Shown here piece after piece: positions 8,082 through 46,382 of a stretch of DNA of 64,000 bases. The notes beneath the pieces are model-generated. The model worked only from the letters and a program-made list of their open reading frames with translations. It ran no database searches and was not told the DNA's origin. The position numbers and the translations under genes are program-made. Each line of letters begins with the position of its first letter. The stretch's first letter is position 1. This DNA is from Escherichia phage phiEc_1: sequence record LC768462.1. One strand, given 5' to 3'.

Positions 8082-9623
8082 TTAGTAACTCTGATTCCAT
8101 CTGCTTACGTTTGCCTCATACAGAGAAGCACTTCCGTAGCTAACGTCATGCTTAGAGCGACCACGATGTGTAACAGAGCACGCTGAATAGCGCATTGCAT
8201 CCATTAAGTCATCATGTTCTTTAATAATCTTACCAACCTTACGGTGATATCTAGCTTTCTCTTCGAATAGCTTAGCGTTAGCGGCTGTGTTAAAGATTTT
8301 AAAGCGTCCACTCATCATTCTTTCTCGGATATCTGTGATTCCCGGTTCTACAAAGAAGTTCTTTTTACCATCCATTCCAATTTTGTTGTAGAAGGTCTCA
8401 CTCTGTACGTTAACTCCTGCATTCTTATAGAATTGAGCAACAGATGAACCACTACCTTTCTCAATATTGTCCGCATCATGCGGTAGGATGACAGGAATCC
8501 ACTGACCACGACCATTAATAGCTGGAGCATGATACACTGGAGTAAAGCCACCTTCTTTATACGAGTCGTAAACATAGATAGTATCAGTGTTTGCATCGTA
8601 AGCTGTCCAAACAGCAGCAGTTGGGTGATCAATACCAATATCAATTGCACAGACACGTTTCCACGTATCAGGAATTTCGAATGGTTCACATTTAATTGTG
8701 TCATCCGATACATCATATATCAAACCACTTCCTAACAATGGCATACCTTTCGAACGCATCTCTAACTGCCACGCTGGAATACCTTCAGTCATATCTTTTA
8801 TATCTTGGTCAGTGATGTGTCCACCTAGGTCTGCATGAGCATCCCACCAAGAAGCATTCTGGAAATATAGAGAACCTGTGTTCTCATCCCCTTCACCTTT
8901 CATAAATTTATCTACCAGTTCAGTTAAACCGTTCTCTGGTGTAGCTGTAATTGTAACTAGACCTTTAGTTGTGAGTGTACGTGTGACGCACTGTGCGAAT
9001 ATAGCCATAGACTCGTATGGATCTTCTTCGTCTAACCAAATGTAGTCAACTGTTGCACCCATCAATGTGTGTTCACCCTGTTGGGTTGAACGGAATTCTA
9101 ATGTACTTAAACCGTCAAACTCTCCTCTTTCGTTTTGATGTTTGATTTGTACGATTTGAAGTTTGTTACCATCTCGTTCTATCGTGTCAATGACGATAGC
9201 ATCACGAGGAATGACACCTGTCCCTAATAAATTTGTATCCTTTCCGATAGGTGTACCAAACAACTCCTTTTGCAATACTTTCCTTGTGGAATCCCCTGTA
9301 ATACCAACTGCCCATGCTAAGATAGGTCTTTTAAATTTATACCCTGTCCACCAAGTTGGGTAGCGACCTGTGACATGACAAGCAAACTCGTATGCCTCGC
9401 TATAAGATTTACCAACACGGTTCGCTGCACACAAGAATCTAAAGCGATGCTTCAATCCTGCTGCATAAAATTTCTTTTGGAAGTCATACGCCTTGAAAGA
9501 CAAAATCCTATTATACTTCCTCCATTGGTCACGCTCTTTCAACATATTCAATAGTGCTTTCTTTTCATCTACACTAAGATTGTTACCAGTTAGAGCTTCA
9601 TAAATTTGTTTATCTAATGACAT
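8082..9623 (-). CDS. terminase large subunit
   Basis: 513 aa; Walker A-like CAANRVGKS; size and position upstream of portal. Confidence 0.85.
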   Translation of the reverse strand: MSLDKQIYEALTGNNLSVDEKKALLNMLKERDQWRKYNRILSFKAYDFQKKFYAAGLKHRFRFLCAANRVGKSYSEAYEFACHVTGRYPTWWTGYKFKRPILAWAVGITGDSTRKVLQKELFGTPIGKDTNLLGTGVIPRDAIVIDTIERDGNKLQIVQIKHQNERGEFDGLSTLEFRSTQQGEHTLMGATVDYIWLDEEDPYESMAIFAQCVTRTLTTKGLVTITATPENGLTELVDKFMKGEGDENTGSLYFQNASWWDAHADLGGHITDQDIKDMTEGIPAWQLEMRSKGMPLLGSGLIYDVSDDTIKCEPFEIPDTWKRVCAIDIGIDHPTAAVWTAYDANTDTIYVYDSYKEGGFTPVYHAPAINGRGQWIPVILPHDADNIEKGSGSSVAQFYKNAGVNVQSETFYNKIGMDGKKNFFVEPGITDIRERMMSGRFKIFNTAANAKLFEEKARYHRKVGKIIKEHDDLMDAMRYSACSVTHRGRSKHDVSYGSASLYEANVSRWNQSY

Positions 9624-11435: not shown

Positions 11436-12309
11436 ATCCATCCATGTGCTGTGTTTAAGCTTTCCACATTTACTACATCTCCAAGTGGACTTATAAAGGG
11501 TGTGAACTCTTTCATCCCCGTAAGCTTTGCGTATCCGATAGTACTCATGATCACATTTGAATTGCTTAATGATTAACTTAATTTTCCACATAAGTTCTCT
11601 TTCAACCTTATATATAAGAGTTTAAAATTCTGATTTGACCGAGTGGACCTAGCCGCTTCCCGCGTGTTTCCTAAAAAGGGGGAGTCCTCATTTAAAAAAG
11701 GGTTATTGGCAATGCCTTTAAGCCCATTCCCACGTTCCAACCTTTCCCCGTGCCTACTCCCCGTAATTATTCCCCCGTGTATACCATCCTATTCATTAGC
11801 TACCCGTTTATTTAGTTCCCCTTTAAAGAGTGAGAGAAAGGCCAGCACTGTACAGGCACTACCATAAGAGAGCTAATAATACCCATAAGTAATAGCTCAC
11901 ATCCCCCATAGTTACGTTGATAATAGTTTCAATAGTAATGATTATGAGTGCAATAATGATGTATGTATTAATTAAGTGGAAAGATTATGTTTGATGTTTA
12001 TTATATTCTTTTATTACTTTCTTTTTTCAGCGTTCTTTTATTCTTTTCTTTTAACGTTCGATGTGTATGAGTTTACATTAATAGTTAACTAATTATTTAA
12101 GTGGTATATTATTACCGCACTATCTTGCATGTTTCCCCGTGGTCTGTTCTGCGGTTGTTGTATCCCCGTTTGTCCTGGTCTGTTGGTCTGTTACCCGTAG
12201 TGTTATAAAGTAACAATATCTAGTAAGCTGATTCTCTGAGTATGGAAAGTTTAGTAAATTAAATTCCTTTAGTTTTCAGTGAGTTATAGGAAAGTTAGAA
12301 AATAAATGG

Positions 12310-12337
12310 TTGACAGCCTTTTCCTTTATTATATAGT
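12310..12337 (+). promoter_or_regulatory. sigma70-type early promoter
   Basis: TTGACA-16 nt-TATAGT with A-rich upstream, 45 nt before first early ORF. Confidence 0.65.
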
Positions 12338-12381
12338 TGCGATTGTAGTTTGTAGTTTTCATCAACCATAAGGAATATCAA

Positions 12382-13891: not shown

Positions 13892-14257
13892 ATGGGTGTT
13901 ATCAAGTTTGTAGTGAAAGTATTTGTAGGCTTCTTTCTGGTTGTTCTCCTGTTAGGTGTCCTGCTGTCATCTATGGGTAGCGTTAAGGCTGCAACATTTT
14001 CCCCTGATACGGTTGACGGTTTACAGTGCACCTATTTGATAGAAAACTATGAAACTGGTAAAAAGTCACCTAAAGTTATTATTTTACATGTGAATGATTT
14101 CGAACATGTACAATCATACGATAAAACTATTCAACTGGTAAATGAAACTACCGGTAAACAAATTACGGTGGATCACTTGATGCGCTCATCGTTGACGCTC
14201 TTTGATGAGTCCATGAATGAAATGGCATCCGGTAACGGTCAATGTGTAAATCCATAG
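13892..14257 (+). CDS. membrane-anchored/secreted protein
   Basis: N-terminal hydrophobic segment FVGFFLVVLLLGVLL. Confidence 0.55.
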   Translation: MGVIKFVVKVFVGFFLVVLLLGVLLSSMGSVKAATFSPDTVDGLQCTYLIENYETGKKSPKVIILHVNDFEHVQSYDKTIQLVNETTGKQITVDHLMRSSLTLFDESMNEMASGNGQCVNP

Positions 14258-14516
14258 GCTTAATCTTTCTCCTGTATTGTGCCGTAGTCATGCCTATGGT
14301 CATAATTTATCTGATTCTCTAATCCTTCCTGTAAGCCTCCTAGTGAGGCTTTTCTCTTTTATGAGGTGATTGTATGCCTTACTCCCTTTTAGCTCGTTGT
14401 GATGCGTTTTAGGCCGCTAAATATCGCTTTACAAGCCGTTTTCTATGATGTATCGCGTGCGCCTGCTCTTTTACCTTCCTATAGTGAAAAAGTTTAAAAT
14501 AATTTGCTTTACCCTA

Positions 14517-14544
14517 TTGCAACCTCATCTGATTAGCGTATACT
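14517..14544 (+). promoter_or_regulatory. candidate sigma70 promoter
   Basis: TTGCAA-16 nt-TATACT. Confidence 0.45.
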
Positions 14545-14576
14545 TCATTTCATCGGGTACGATGTAAAACATACAA

Positions 14577-14605
14577 GGCAAGAAATTGCCCCGCTCTTTA
14601 AAAAT
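14577..14605 (+). promoter_or_regulatory. boxB-like hairpin + boxA-like element (antitermination site 1)
   Basis: GGCAA-GAAA-TTGCC hairpin then CGCTCTTTAAAAAT. Confidence 0.55.
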
Positions 14606-14641
14606 CAGGCTAGAAAGTGAAAATATTCTCAAAAAAGAGTA

Positions 14642-14670
14642 TTGACACCGGAAAAAGCCTGATATATAGT
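14642..14670 (+). promoter_or_regulatory. strong sigma70 promoter
   Basis: TTGACA-17 nt-TATAGT, A-rich UP-like element upstream. Confidence 0.7.
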
Positions 14671-14677
14671 GAGCATA

Positions 14678-14714
14678 GTCAGCGATGACTTAAAAAATCC
14701 CGCTCTTTAAAAAT
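14678..14714 (+). promoter_or_regulatory. boxB-like hairpin + boxA-like element (antitermination site 2)
   Basis: GTCA-GCGA-TGAC hairpin then CGCTCTTTAAAAAT. Confidence 0.6.
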
Positions 14715-14972
14715 ATGATTTGTCTTACGGGTGGCGGCGACGTCATTACTATAAGGCGCTCAGTTAATTGGTAGAATTGATTCCTGATTCATACGTGACG
14801 CAGGCGGACAATAAGCAATATCAATAAGCCTTATTTGTTCGATACTTTCAAAAGATTAATGCTTGAAAGCGCACTAGATTCCCTGAAAGACAAATCAGAC
14901 TTATCATCTTGCCCTTTCGCATAGATTCACGCGAGATAAGGGAAAGGAATTAAAAGAAGATGATAAAAAGAG

Positions 14973-15001
14973 TTGCAAACGTGGTTAAAGTAGTCCATAC
15001 T
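14973..15001 (+). promoter_or_regulatory. candidate sigma70 promoter
   Basis: TTGCAA-17 nt-CATACT. Confidence 0.4.
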
Positions 15002-15160
15002 AACCACAAGTTAGCAAAACATCGCTAACTAGTTCCCAAATCAACGTATCGCGGGAAAGGTGGCACATAGTGCAGCGATTAGTTCAGGTGTAGGCGGCCT
15101 GTTAATGAATCAGTAAGCCTTCAATGTGACAGTGATTAGCAGACACTTTAAAAGGCTAAA

Positions 15161-15174
15161 CGCTCTTTAACAAT
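15161..15174 (+). promoter_or_regulatory. boxA-like element (site 3)
   Basis: CGCTCTTTAACAAT, closest match to the rrn boxA core as I recall it. Confidence 0.5.
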
Positions 15175-15274
15175 ATGAGTCATAAGTTAAGCCTCACCGC
15201 TTAATCTTCAATCAAATAAAGCTGATTGATATATCCTCCCAATAGCGGGAACGACGAAAAAGATTAAAAAGCGG

Positions 15275-15303
15275 TTGACAGCGAAAACAACATGATTCAT
15301 AAT
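15275..15303 (+). promoter_or_regulatory. strong sigma70 promoter
   Basis: TTGACA-17 nt-CATAAT, A-rich upstream. Confidence 0.7.
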
Positions 15304-15364
15304 GAGCACTCACTAAGCAAATCATCGCTTCAGTGAAAAGCGTAACAACGGCTAACAGTTGCAT

Positions 15365-15407
15365 AGTGTGAGAAAGCACACTGATAGATTTACCGCTCTT
15401 TAATAAT
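15365..15407 (+). promoter_or_regulatory. boxB-like hairpin + boxA-like element (antitermination site 4)
   Basis: AGTGTG-AGAAAG-CACACT hairpin then CGCTCTTTAATAAT. Confidence 0.6.
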
Positions 15408-16226
15408 TTAAACATTCTCCTATATCGGTTGAATATGCTTGATGATAATAACCATCGGAAAGCATACCAGATAAAACGGCGTAAAACTCCCTAAATTATC
15501 AGGGTAAACAGTTTTACATTCCCTTACTGGAAACGTCACCATTGATAAACGGATTCATTGAGTACACGCAAAGACTTGAGCTAATCGCCCACGGTTAAGG
15601 GTAGCGGCGGTCATTGCTAACACGGTGCTACAGTGAAAGAAGTTAATCAGGGTAGGCAATCCCGACGAATTAACGCTCAATTGAGAGCGGCGGGGAGTGG
15701 TTAAAAAGTGGCAAATTGCTATTTAACAATAAGGTTTAGTGTGAACGTTTACAATGTGAACGGCTTGAGATTCATCTTATGATGAAAGTACATAGTCGGT
15801 TTATGTAGTAAACTTGCCGAAAGATATAAAACGTCGGAACATTAGACGGTCAATGACTCTTTCGCAATAGTATCCCGTAGTGGGCGATGACTAGCGATTG
15901 AGAGTTGATATAAAAGGATAGGCGAGAGCGAAAGCAAAGTAAACGATATTGCCGACGGTTACAATAACGTAACTAATTAGAGTCGGACGCACTGCCTTAT
16001 TGTGATGATTGATCATCGCTATCAGGTCGGCTTCGTTTATAGCGACTAATTAAAGATACCAGATGAAACATCACGGATAAGGGGGCGGCAAGGTTAACTC
16101 CTGATAAGACCGCCCCGCTTACCTATAACTACTTAACAACGAGTGGTTATAGTTAAGTTAATAGTGACTTAAACAAGCTCATAGAGAGCGGGGCAATAGC
16201 GCCCTTACAATTGAAAGGTGAATATT

Positions 16227-17126
16227 ATGGCTAAAATCTTTACTCTGGTTAACGAATCCGGTTTTAATGCTCTGGCTAACAACATTCGCAGTAATAACGC
16301 GGCGATCAAACAAGATGTTTCTAACTTCCTGTTAGGTCATTTGCAGCACTTTCGTAGCAACGGTAAGAAGTTAGATGTATTGCAGGCGGCGGTTGACTTC
16401 CTGTTAACCGAACGTTTCCGCGATATGGATGTTATTGCCACCGCGATTACTTTCTTAACTCCTATCAAGTTTAACACCGATGCGGCAAATGGTCGTAAAA
16501 AGTGGATTAATCTGGAAGGTGAGGCGAAAGCTAAAGAAGATGCGAAAGAAGCGCAAATTAAGGCCAAAATGGAACAAAACCGCGCTCGCTGGTCAAACGC
16601 TTTCGAAAACTTTGCATTAGGTCGTGCAATTGAAGTGGATAATCCTAACTTCTACAAAGGTTGCAATGACAACGTGGCGGCACACCTGCAAATTCCGGCG
16701 AAAAACAAGGAAGATTTTAATCAGGATATTTACGCTTTGGTTGAACGCTTGAATGCAATCCGTATTGAAGCCAAATTACTGGCTGATGAGCGCAACGGCG
16801 CAACCAGCGATAACACTATCGCCCTGAGTGAAGAAGTTGGGAAGGTTAAAAAGTCCTTTGATTCACTCATCAAGAAAATCACGGCCTCGACGGTAGCGAT
16901 CTCGGATGATTATCTGATGAACGCATCAAGCAAGGAATTAGAATCACTCGATTCATACGCTGATGAAATGGAAAAGACTGTTGCAGCTATGCAGGAGAAG
17001 TTAGAAAGTCTGCGCGGTCGTATCTCTTCAACGGTTGCTACCCGTAGCGAACAAGCGGCGAAAGCAGAAGAGGAAGAAGTATTGCGTAAAGCGGCTGAAA
17101 TTATGGCGGCACGTCAAGCGGCATAA
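16227..17126 (+). CDS. early protein, hypothetical
   Basis: ATG with GAAAGGTG SD (track start 16218 is GTG); 300 aa, coiled-coil C-terminus. Confidence 0.7.
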   Translation: MAKIFTLVNESGFNALANNIRSNNAAIKQDVSNFLLGHLQHFRSNGKKLDVLQAAVDFLLTERFRDMDVIATAITFLTPIKFNTDAANGRKKWINLEGEAKAKEDAKEAQIKAKMEQNRARWSNAFENFALGRAIEVDNPNFYKGCNDNVAAHLQIPAKNKEDFNQDIYALVERLNAIRIEAKLLADERNGATSDNTIALSEEVGKVKKSFDSLIKKITASTVAISDDYLMNASSKELESLDSYADEMEKTVAAMQEKLESLRGRISSTVATRSEQAAKAEEEEVLRKAAEIMAARQAA

Positions 17127-17150
17127 GTAAGACAATTTAAATAAACATAA

Positions 17151-17183
17151 GGCGCTATCTTAACGGGTAGCGCCTTTTCTTTT
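17151..17183 (+). terminator. intrinsic terminator
   Basis: GGCGCTA..TAGCGCC hairpin + TTTTCTTTT. Confidence 0.65.
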
Positions 17184-17228
17184 ATCAGTGCATTGATTCA
17201 GTGCATTAATCAAAGAATCTAATTAAAG

Positions 17229-18476: not shown

Positions 18477-18499
18477 AGCCGCCTTTGAGCGGCTTTTTG
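18477..18499 (+). terminator. intrinsic terminator
   Basis: AGCCGC-cuuuga-GCGGCU + U5. Confidence 0.6.
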
Positions 18500-23022: not shown

Positions 23023-23095
23023 GCGCTCTTAGCTCAATGGATAGAGCAGTAGCCTTCTAAGCTATTGGTTACAGGTTCGAGTCCTGTAGGGCGCA
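23023..23095 (+). tRNA. tRNA-Arg (anticodon UCU); CCA encoded at 23096-23098
   Basis: hand-folded cloverleaf: 7-bp acceptor stem, D-arm, anticodon loop CU-UCU-AA, T-arm ACAGG-TTCGAGT-CCTGT. Confidence 0.9.
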
Positions 23096-23117
23096 CCAAA
23101 TCTAATAGGAGGTAATT

Positions 23118-46373: not shown

Positions 46374-46382
46374 TAATGTATA
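46374..46382 (+). promoter_or_regulatory. TAATGTATA motif (candidate phage-specific promoter element)
   Basis: 37 nt upstream of ATG 46419. Confidence 0.45.

Follow-up and report, generated by a model that had tools for sequence, protein, structure and literature searches.

Repeated boxA elements and a covarying structured leader RNA ahead of the early genes of a phiEco32-like phage: candidate signals for host Nus-dependent antitermination

Antitermination through boxA in phage early transcription is already known from lambda, where it acts with the N protein, and, genetically, from T7. Host-only boxA antitermination, independent of N, is established for ribosomal RNA (rRNA) operons (rrn), suhB, the arrays of clustered regularly interspaced short palindromic repeats (CRISPR) and, again genetically, T7. 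Here we describe positions 14258–16226 of a 64,000-nucleotide (nt) stretch of Escherichia phage phiEc_1 (LC768462.1), hereafter the window, in which sigma70-type promoters, four boxA copies and a large folded leader RNA precede the first early gene. Coordinates refer to the window, and features lie on its + strand unless stated otherwise. From sequence and comparative evidence, we give a probability of roughly 0.6 to a cis-acting, host Nus-dependent antitermination of the rrn/T7 type, coupled to co-transcriptional folding of the untranslated, structured early leader.

In rrn operons the order of elements is boxB–boxA–boxC, and boxC, 18–19 nt after boxA, is the 5' strand of the leader-trailer helix (PMC10250234). 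In the model for these operons, NusB-bound boxA anchors the strand at the exit channel, the rRNA loops out, and the trailer pairs on emergence (PMC10250234). The rrn complex of NusA, NusB, NusE, NusG, SuhB and S4 counters Rho and, with SuhB, also suppresses an intrinsic terminator in vitro (PMC6614801). BoxA also shields long untranslated CRISPR transcripts from Rho (PMC7665894). Mutation of the T7 boxA gave a genetic phenotype that was ascribed to loss of antitermination (PMC3709561); thus, the exact boxA sequence functions on a virulent coliphage as a signal for antitermination by host polymerase.

The phage phiEco32 lacks an RNA polymerase of its own. For the early genes it relies on the host sigma70 holoenzyme, and genes of the middle and late classes are transcribed by host core enzyme with the phage sigma factor gp36, aided by gp79 (PMC12276001; PMC8948821). 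According to secondary sources, its early transcription runs in the same direction as the window + strand. The sigma70 promoters of the spacer studied here had been noted before, three of them having been predicted in the paper on phage SU10. In contrast, the available kuravirus literature contains no mention of boxA or RNA structure, and we found no prior mention, in the available literature, of stacked conserved promoter-boxA cassettes, a covarying leader RNA or boxA at the foot of closing helices. A paper on the svsR small RNA of kuraviruses has no bearing on this region.

The exact motif CGCTCTTTAANAAT occurs at 14592, 14701, 15161 and 15394, always on the + strand, and the observed count was reached in no shuffle. 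All four copies match the gamma-proteobacterial boxA consensus GYTCTTTAANA (Baniulyte et al. 2017, PMC5725501) at 11/11 positions, with match starts at 14593, 14702, 15162 and 15395. The whole window holds 7 consensus matches against 0.58 expected, and 4/7 lie inside this 2 kilobases (kb). The other three, at 8216 (+), 18176 (−, antisense to an open reading frame, ORF) and 62830 (+), are probably chance matches.

BoxA1 (14592–14605) and boxA2 (14701–14714) both read CGCTCTTTAAAAAT. The AUCAGGCU that follows boxA1 pairs with AGCCUGAU at 14656–14663, and the pairing is kept by a compensatory change in phage 4E8 (TAGGCT/AGCCTA). BoxA3 (15161–15174) reads CGCTCTTTAACAAT, a 14-mer identical to the T7 boxA; T7 carries the identical longer ACGCTCTTTAACAAT (window 15160–15174) at nt 811–825, 3' of promoters A1–A3 and 5' of gene 0.3. 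The 13 nt GCTCTTTAACAAT of boxA3 are also common to the E. coli rrn leader. BoxA4 (15394–15407) reads CGCTCTTTAATAAT and is CGCTCTTTAACAATTTA in many relatives, where the variant CCGCTCTTTAACAATTTAAAC has 16 nt in common with the rrn leader sequence GCACTGCTCTTTAACAATTTATCAG. The latter occurs at 100% identity in 5,426/5,426 complete genomes of E. coli, the median copy number being 7. The preliminary description of this DNA, made from the sequence alone, had proposed four boxA-like copies matching the rrn boxA core, which these exact sites, full consensus matches and identities of up to 16 nt bear out.

The boxA elements were compared in 23 relatives, including four metagenomic contigs (mg31, mg35, mg36 and mg51), with homologous spacers of 1.8–2.3 kb. 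In each spacer the transcribed strand contains 3–5 consensus boxA and the opposite one 0, a total of 92:0. Across about 100 genomes the motif itself is invariant, and in the relatives boxA3 and boxA4 stand at fixed distances from the first ATG (−1065 and −832). The flanks of the upstream copies are mosaic: promoter-hairpin-boxA-module cassettes have been swapped, inserted or deleted with breakpoints at boxA, and the core has stayed constant. Phages of the SU7 clade have an additional 66-amino-acid (aa) ORF, preceded by a good ribosome-binding site, inserted after their first boxA (SU7 1150–1350; homologous in TH42 and NC-B), so that boxA there precedes a protein gene within the spacer. In local folds of the window sequence, boxA copies 1, 2 and 4 are unpaired, and in the consensus fold boxA is largely unpaired.

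All boxA copies lie on the transcribed strand, 3' of sigma70-like promoters. The promoter scan placed P1 (TTGCAA-16-TATACT, 9/12) at 14517–14544, P2 (TTGACA-17-TATAGT, 11/12) at 14620–14670 with its hexamers at 14642–14670, and P4 (TTGACA-17-CATAAT, 11/12) at 15253–15303 with its hexamers at 15275–15303. A weak P3 (TTGCAA-17-CATACT, 8/12) was read by eye at 14973–15001. At the P1 site some relatives have a TTGACA-16-TAATAT cassette instead, and at the P3 site relatives have TTGACA-16-TAAGCT, TAGAAT or TAAGAT. P4 is kept in all relatives, and each spacer of the 23 relatives has 2–4 promoters at ≥10/12. The P2 15-mer AAAAAGAGTATTGAC (14632–14646) is identical to the UP/−35 region of T7 promoter A1 (T7 452–466). 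The two 15-mers common to the T7 early region (AAAAAGAGTATTGAC and ACGCTCTTTAACAAT) could reflect convergence on optimal host-factor sites or cassette exchange.

Stem-loops stand 5' of boxA1, boxA2 and boxA4, as in an rrn nut-like site. Hairpin 1 (14577–14590; GGCAA-GAAA-TTGCC) has a GNRA loop and ends 1–2 nt 5' of boxA1; its stem is preserved in the Bas90 variant ggcaaggaaacttgcc. Hairpin 2 (14677–14690; AGTCA-GCGA-TGACT), also with a GNRA loop, lies at the predicted 5' end of the P2 transcript and varies among relatives as TTCA/TGAA and GGTCA/TGACC, with a GTGA loop. Hairpin 4 (15364–15383) has a 7-base-pair (bp) stem and an AGAAAG loop 10–12 nt 5' of boxA4, and its stem occurs in relatives as GTGTG/CACAC, ACGTG/CACGT, GCGTG/CACGC and AAGTG/CACTT. 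By inspection, the stems of these hairpins thus differ among relatives in a compensatory manner. The element 5' of boxA3 is a weaker, imperfect hairpin.

Three claims of the preliminary description bear on these elements. It counted at least three near-consensus sigma70 promoters with A-rich upstream tracts; the UP-like tracts are present at P2 (from 14620) and P4 (from 15253), and the count holds for the promoters at 14642 and 15275 only, since that at 14517 scores 9/12. It placed GNRA-type hairpins directly before three boxA copies, and such hairpins do fold before copies 1, 2 and 4, although the gap ranges from 1 to 12 nt and adjacency is not constant. Its label of boxB is loose for hairpins that are themselves real, as rrn can dispense with boxB, the four upstream early ORFs yielded no N-like protein, and the elements are ordered as in rrn rather than as in lambda nut.

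Directly downstream of the first early gene (16227–17126) stands a strong intrinsic terminator with a 12-bp stem and a T-run (17149–17186), which is also annotated in SU7. Since no promoter lies between it and the next gene, transcription initiated in the leader must pass this terminator. Further + strand terminator-like hairpins occur at 18477, 18562 and 21762. From 16.2 to 30 kb, sigma70-like promoters are depleted (15 vs 29.9±6.0 expected) and terminator-like sites are enriched (20 vs 9.2±2.8 expected), and the first exact + strand match to the gp36-type promoter motif TAATGTATA is at 46374. Given these terminators, the few sigma70 promoters and the distant gp36 motif, transcription of about 30 kb of early genes seems to rest on polymerases that initiate within the leader.

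The RNA from boxA4 to the first ATG was analyzed in an alignment of 24 distinct sequences (TH42 re-anchored; mean column identity 87%). The distance between boxA4 and the ATG is 838–848 nt in all but one of them, LAMP having 877 nt owing to an insertion. The RNAalifold consensus contains 228 pairs, with standard pairs in 99.1% of 5,472 cells. Two-sided changes were found in 73 pairs, compared to 32±3 in shuffles (0/500 reach 73) and 7–11 in slid controls, in which pairing partners were shifted by 1–3 columns. The covariation score was 0.228 against 0.03–0.06 in the slid controls. The minimum free energy of the + strand was −263.4 kcal/mol (z = −9.1), compared to −220.4 kcal/mol (z = −4.7) for the complement, and several G-U pairs of the structure are invariant. 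Both this energy gap and these G-U pairs show that it is the + strand RNA that folds. In composition the leader is rich in G and poor in C, with a GC skew of up to +0.30.

Domain I (15407–15705, about 300 nt) comprises helices 2–16, with compensatory changes in helices 2, 4, 5, 8, 9, 10, 11, 13 and 16. The 5' strand of its closing helix (15407–15420/15692–15705) adjoins boxA4, and 3 of its pairs are compensatory. Helix 17 (15706–15724) then forms a hairpin that sequesters the 5' portion of TGCTATTTAACAAT (15717–15730), a fifth, degenerate boxA-like element, which departs from the consensus by a C4-to-A change. A C4T/T6C double mutation abolished suhB boxA function (PMC5725501), so the deviating position C4 is one of the two changed in that mutant. 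Domain II (15726–16003, about 280 nt) comprises helices 18–30, with many compensatory pairs in helices 19–27, 29 and 30. It is closed by ACAATAAGG (15726–15734) with CCTTATTGT (15995–16003), or as RNA ACAAUAAGG/CCUUAUUGU, with one compensatory C-G to U-A change in TH42.

A 3' series of hairpins (helices 31–39, 16004–16226) occupies the rest of the leader and begins with the hairpin GATGA-TTGA-TCATC. The hairpin GGGGCGG/CCGCCCC (16082–16116) presents a nearly invariant 21-nt loop, CAAGGTTAACTCCTGATAAGA (16089–16109), on a stem that covaries, for example to AAGGGAG/CUCCCUU in 4E8. A conserved, covarying 16-bp hairpin follows at 16118–16157 and is a candidate processing site of the RNase III type. 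After it come three small hairpins, the Shine-Dalgarno sequence (SD) AAAGGTGA at 16214–16221, and the ATG at 16227. The sequence ATACCAGAT[A/G]AAAC is repeated at 15464–15477 in domain I and at 16056–16069 in the 3' hairpin region, nearly invariant in the 24 relatives, and domains I and II both contain two more short motifs at a similar spacing (15471/15826 and 15584/15948). These recurring motifs hint at an internal duplication or a repeated binding site.

No Rfam 15 family matched the region at the gathering score, with chance-level matches only at E ≤10. A 16-nt complementarity (94%) between 14585–14600 at boxA1 and 16182–16197 was discarded as an rrn-type processing stem, because phiEco32 has a different sequence in place of the 5' arm, whereas its unaltered 3' arm is engaged in local hairpins. 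As predicted from the alignment, the leader is a large conserved structured RNA and not a passive spacer.

A second structured module of about 180 nt lies upstream (module 2, 14716–14897), with 51 predicted pairs, 12 of which show compensatory changes. Its 11-bp closing helix (14716–14726/14887–14897) begins 1–3 nt 3' of boxA2 and has compensatory changes in TH42 and PJNS034. Therefore, the 5' strand of a long-range helix directly follows boxA both at boxA2 and at boxA4, as in a leader-trailer arrangement, with spacing and sequence unlike those of rrn. Module 2 is missing from some relatives and is common to the unrelated 65-kb phage PJNS034. PJNS034 (PP391266, 2000–3821) and Pantoea phage TacPo2 (PP496723, about 830–2450) are unclassified 65-kb phages with an ORF-free region of about 1.6–1.8 kb containing sigma70-like promoters and consensus boxA. 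Both have the 180-nt kuravirus boxA2 module and the boxA3–P4 stretch and not the 840-nt leader. Homology of the 840-nt leader to the leaders of these phages was rejected, as it was undetected by nhmmer and blastn; the upstream cassettes alone are in common.

The kuravirus leader repeats the rrn layout in miniature, and for this reason cis-acting modification of the polymerase of the rrn/T7 type is favored. The motifs with their conservation and strand bias, the conserved fold of the RNA and the layout of terminators and promoters are observed; from these we infer factor binding, read-through and chaperoning as follows. Host RNA polymerase would start at the four stacked promoters, and boxA would soon be present in each transcript. 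NusB-NusE(S10) would bind boxA and, with NusA, NusG and SuhB, bring the polymerase into an rrn-type antitermination complex. The untranslated leader of 0.85–1.7 kb could then be transcribed without premature (Rho) termination, and beyond the first gene the modified polymerase could pass the intrinsic terminators and enter the early cluster of about 30 kb, in which strong sigma70 promoters are lacking. At boxA2 and boxA4, boxA tethered at the RNA exit channel may hold the 5' strand of the helix until its partner emerges. Such holding would aid the folding of the large leader domains, as proposed for rRNA leader-trailer helices. For its early transcripts, the phage thus seems to borrow the apparatus with which the cell transcribes rRNA. 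For the Nus-factor antitermination put forward in the preliminary description, the 11/11 consensus matches, the 92:0 strand bias, the T7 identity, the lack of an own polymerase and the downstream terminators all speak in favor; its binding and read-through steps are deduced from these features.

Several points weigh against antitermination in cis. No match to boxC (UCUGUGUGGG) with ≤2 mismatches was found in 14258–16226, and boxC was rejected as the third part of an rrn nut-like site. No Arg-rich N-like motif was found in the four upstream early ORFs, the downstream early ORFs lying outside that search; together with the position of the hairpins 5' of boxA, this led us to reject a lambda-type nut site. 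In the distant relative Salmonella phage 7-11, the leader, about 1 kb long and free of annotated genes, contains no boxA consensus match. That leader lies at the right end on the reverse strand (about 1–1050), before the first early gene (gene 151), and the authors of the 7-11 study state that an antitermination strategy "remains to be defined" for this phage. The kuravirus leader, G-rich and heavily structured, may like rRNA resist Rho by itself, and the argument for protection from Rho would then be weaker (PMC5725501). In vivo, a host-only boxA complex may also be limited in how well it overcomes a strong intrinsic terminator of 12 bp.

The preliminary description had mentioned non-coding RNA as an alternative, and this was nearer the truth than its headline implied, since the region is a multi-domain, conserved structured RNA. 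A more far-reaching reading sees in the 0.85–1.7 kb leader a large structured phage RNA of a new class, laid out and transcribed as a small rRNA operon would be, with stacked promoters of rrn strength and with boxA at the foot of each domain-closing helix, through which host Nus factors and SuhB, acting as an RNA polymerase-chaperone, would fold it; we regard this as rather doubtful. Equally tentative is its own role in trans in host takeover, for example by sequestering Nus factors, ribosomal proteins or a defence system.

In a related explanation, which we consider unlikely, the RNA is itself the product. The leader, or domains cleaved from it, would be a plentiful structured non-coding RNA that acts in trans in host takeover or anti-defence, or its 3–5 boxA copies might make it a decoy that titrates NusB, NusE and SuhB from rrn, with read-through being secondary. 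This is compatible with the cis model and not exclusive of it. The size, constant length (838–848 nt) and depth of covariation exceed the needs of an ordinary 5' untranslated region (UTR), and the invariant single-stranded loops (the 21-nt loop at 16089–16109 and the repeated ATACCAGAT[AG]AAAC) resemble binding sites. Four stacked strong promoters imply a very high RNA output, NusB:NusE binds free rrn boxA RNA with a dissociation constant of about 8 nM (PMC2800207), and the cassettes travel as units between unrelated phages. However, neither a terminator nor an obvious 3' end separates the domains from the first gene, so the leader RNA is made as a 5' UTR, and the processing site is a candidate only. 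A Nus decoy would need neither boxA exactly 5' of closing helices nor one boxA per promoter, and the RNA has no likeness in Rfam, large phage RNAs included.

It is still less probable that the leader serves chiefly as a regulatory and protective 5' UTR, shielding the early messenger RNA (mRNA) from RNases and Rho, with a Nus complex on boxA4 controlling access to the SD of the first gene as in suhB and so tuning translation instead of antiterminating processively. Both the consensus and the single-sequence folds predict pairing of AUUUACC, directly 5' of boxA4, with GGUGAAU at the SD of the first gene, and a U-G pair of this helix becomes U-A in TH42. BoxA-dependent SD occlusion has a precedent in suhB (PMC5725501), and 5'-terminal hairpins stand at the predicted transcript starts. 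However, this helix (helix 1) is invariant and has 0 compensatory pairs, and the pairing is therefore without covariation support. The 3–5 boxA copies and the upstream cassettes would be left unexplained, and the downstream terminators would still have to be passed.

That the motif acts at the DNA level or through another factor, as a phage-protein site or a recombination hotspot for cassettes with a coincidental likeness to boxA, is very improbable: cassette indels among relatives are bounded by the motif and thus point to recombination between its copies, but this is an expected by-product of conserved repeats, whereas 11–16 nt of identity to rrn and T7 boxA in 3–5 copies per genome is very unlikely by chance, and the 92:0 orientation and the place 3' of promoters fit an RNA signal.

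The region belongs to a narrow group of phages. It matches 97–98 phage records, all of them Escherichia or Shigella phiEco32-group podophages of the genera Kuravirus, Suseptimavirus and Nieuwekanaalvirus (subfamily Gordonclarkvirinae), and the window itself is from a Kuravirus, a phiEco32-like podophage. In the linear phiEco32 record of 77,554 bp, the homologous sequence is a 1,944-bp gap between genes 125 and 124 (72,787–74,730), whose leftward direction equals the window + strand, 2.8–4.8 kb from the right end. In most records the homologous spacer has no annotation. A host origin of the leader was rejected after blastn against 5,426 E. coli genomes gave no match. The first early protein has no Pfam domain and was found in the same 97 records only, which ruled out a wider family through this protein. 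Scans of IMG/VR returned only the already known genomes. A metagenome scan gave 8 further kuravirus contigs, and its 29 other matches were chance ones in coding DNA.

The earlier claim of an ORF-free stretch of about 2 kb stands. No + strand ORF of ≥30 aa was found between 14567 and 16218. The short + strand ORFs of the 840-nt leader (≤24 aa) have no ATG and no SD, and 0 of them are intact across all 24 relatives, so hidden small + strand genes were ruled out for want of a conserved ORF with ATG and SD. A minus-strand 67-aa ORF (15212–15415) was rejected as a gene, because indels of 1 and 2 nt break its frame in relatives.

Upstream, the early operon corresponding to phiEco32 genes 128–125 ends at an intrinsic terminator (AAGCCTCCTAGTGAGGCTT followed by a T-run, 14333–14360), and a terminator is annotated at the homologous place in SU10, SU7 and 4E8. 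Many GenBank records call the 121-aa ORF directly upstream of the leader (13892–14257) a terminase; since its N-terminus is hydrophobic and Pfam gives no match for it, the label looks like a propagated annotation error. The first early operon is served by a strong TTGACA-17-TATAGT promoter at 12310–12338 and has no boxA. Within 11900–12340, this promoter follows an AT-rich segment of odd composition between divergent gene sets, which, by comparison with the linear phiEco32 record, is probably the site of the physical genome ends and a terminal repeat. A transfer RNA gene, tRNA-Arg (anticodon TCT), lies at 23023–23098 in the early/middle gene cluster and is the only Rfam match at gathering score in the window.

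Perfect, repeated boxA offers a concrete answer to how host polymerase gets from a few promoters through terminators into a cluster of about 30 kb. If this is true, kuraviruses depend on NusB, NusE and SuhB, a possible determinant of host range or resistance for phages held in therapy collections. The leader domains of 180–300 nt would also provide a compact natural system for the RNA-chaperone and looping role of the rrn complex outside the ribosome, and an uncatalogued, covariation-supported RNA joins the short list of big structured phage RNAs.

Among known systems, lambda nutL and nutR resemble this locus in combining boxA with a GNRA-like hairpin on a phage early transcript and in using host Nus factors, a use that is presumed here. 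They differ in that boxA precedes boxB in lambda and the order is reversed in the kuravirus, and lambda needs N. The lambda boxA is also a weaker CGCTCTTA variant. The CRISPR and suhB boxA are likewise host-only elements outside rrn, on a long untranslated RNA (CRISPR) or a 5' UTR (suhB). However, these are single chromosomal copies without a large structured RNA, whereas kuraviruses have stacked promoter-boxA cassettes in a virulent phage. Large RNAs such as GOLLD and ROOL are similarly phage-encoded, with hundreds of nt of covariation-supported structure; the kuravirus RNA differs in having no Rfam match (E ≤10) and in being the 5' leader of an mRNA with boxA.

T7 is likewise a lytic podophage. 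Its early genes, too, are transcribed by host RNA polymerase with sigma70, which starts at strong tandem promoters no more than a few kb from the genome end. In both phages these promoters are followed by the identical CGCTCTTTAACAAT boxA and then the first early gene, and the 15-mer of the A1 UP/−35 region is also common. However, T7 has one boxA and a leader of 170–420 nt, compared to 3–5 boxA, one per promoter cassette, and a multi-domain leader of 0.85–1.7 kb in kuraviruses. T7 then changes to its own RNA polymerase, whereas kuraviruses retain the host core and change sigma (gp36/gp79), and T7 has the RNase III site R0.3 where the kuravirus leader has only the candidate 16-bp hairpin.

Compared to rrn, the kuravirus locus lacks boxC, its closing helices begin 0–3 nt after boxA instead of 18–19 nt, and its domains of 180–300 nt are unrelated to rRNA and belong to a transcript that runs on into protein genes. 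It nevertheless has in common with rrn the tandem strong promoters, the A-rich upstream tracts, the hairpin-then-boxA order and a boxA identical over up to 16 nt; in both, boxA leads into the 5' strand of a long-range helix around a large, untranslated, G-rich, structured RNA.

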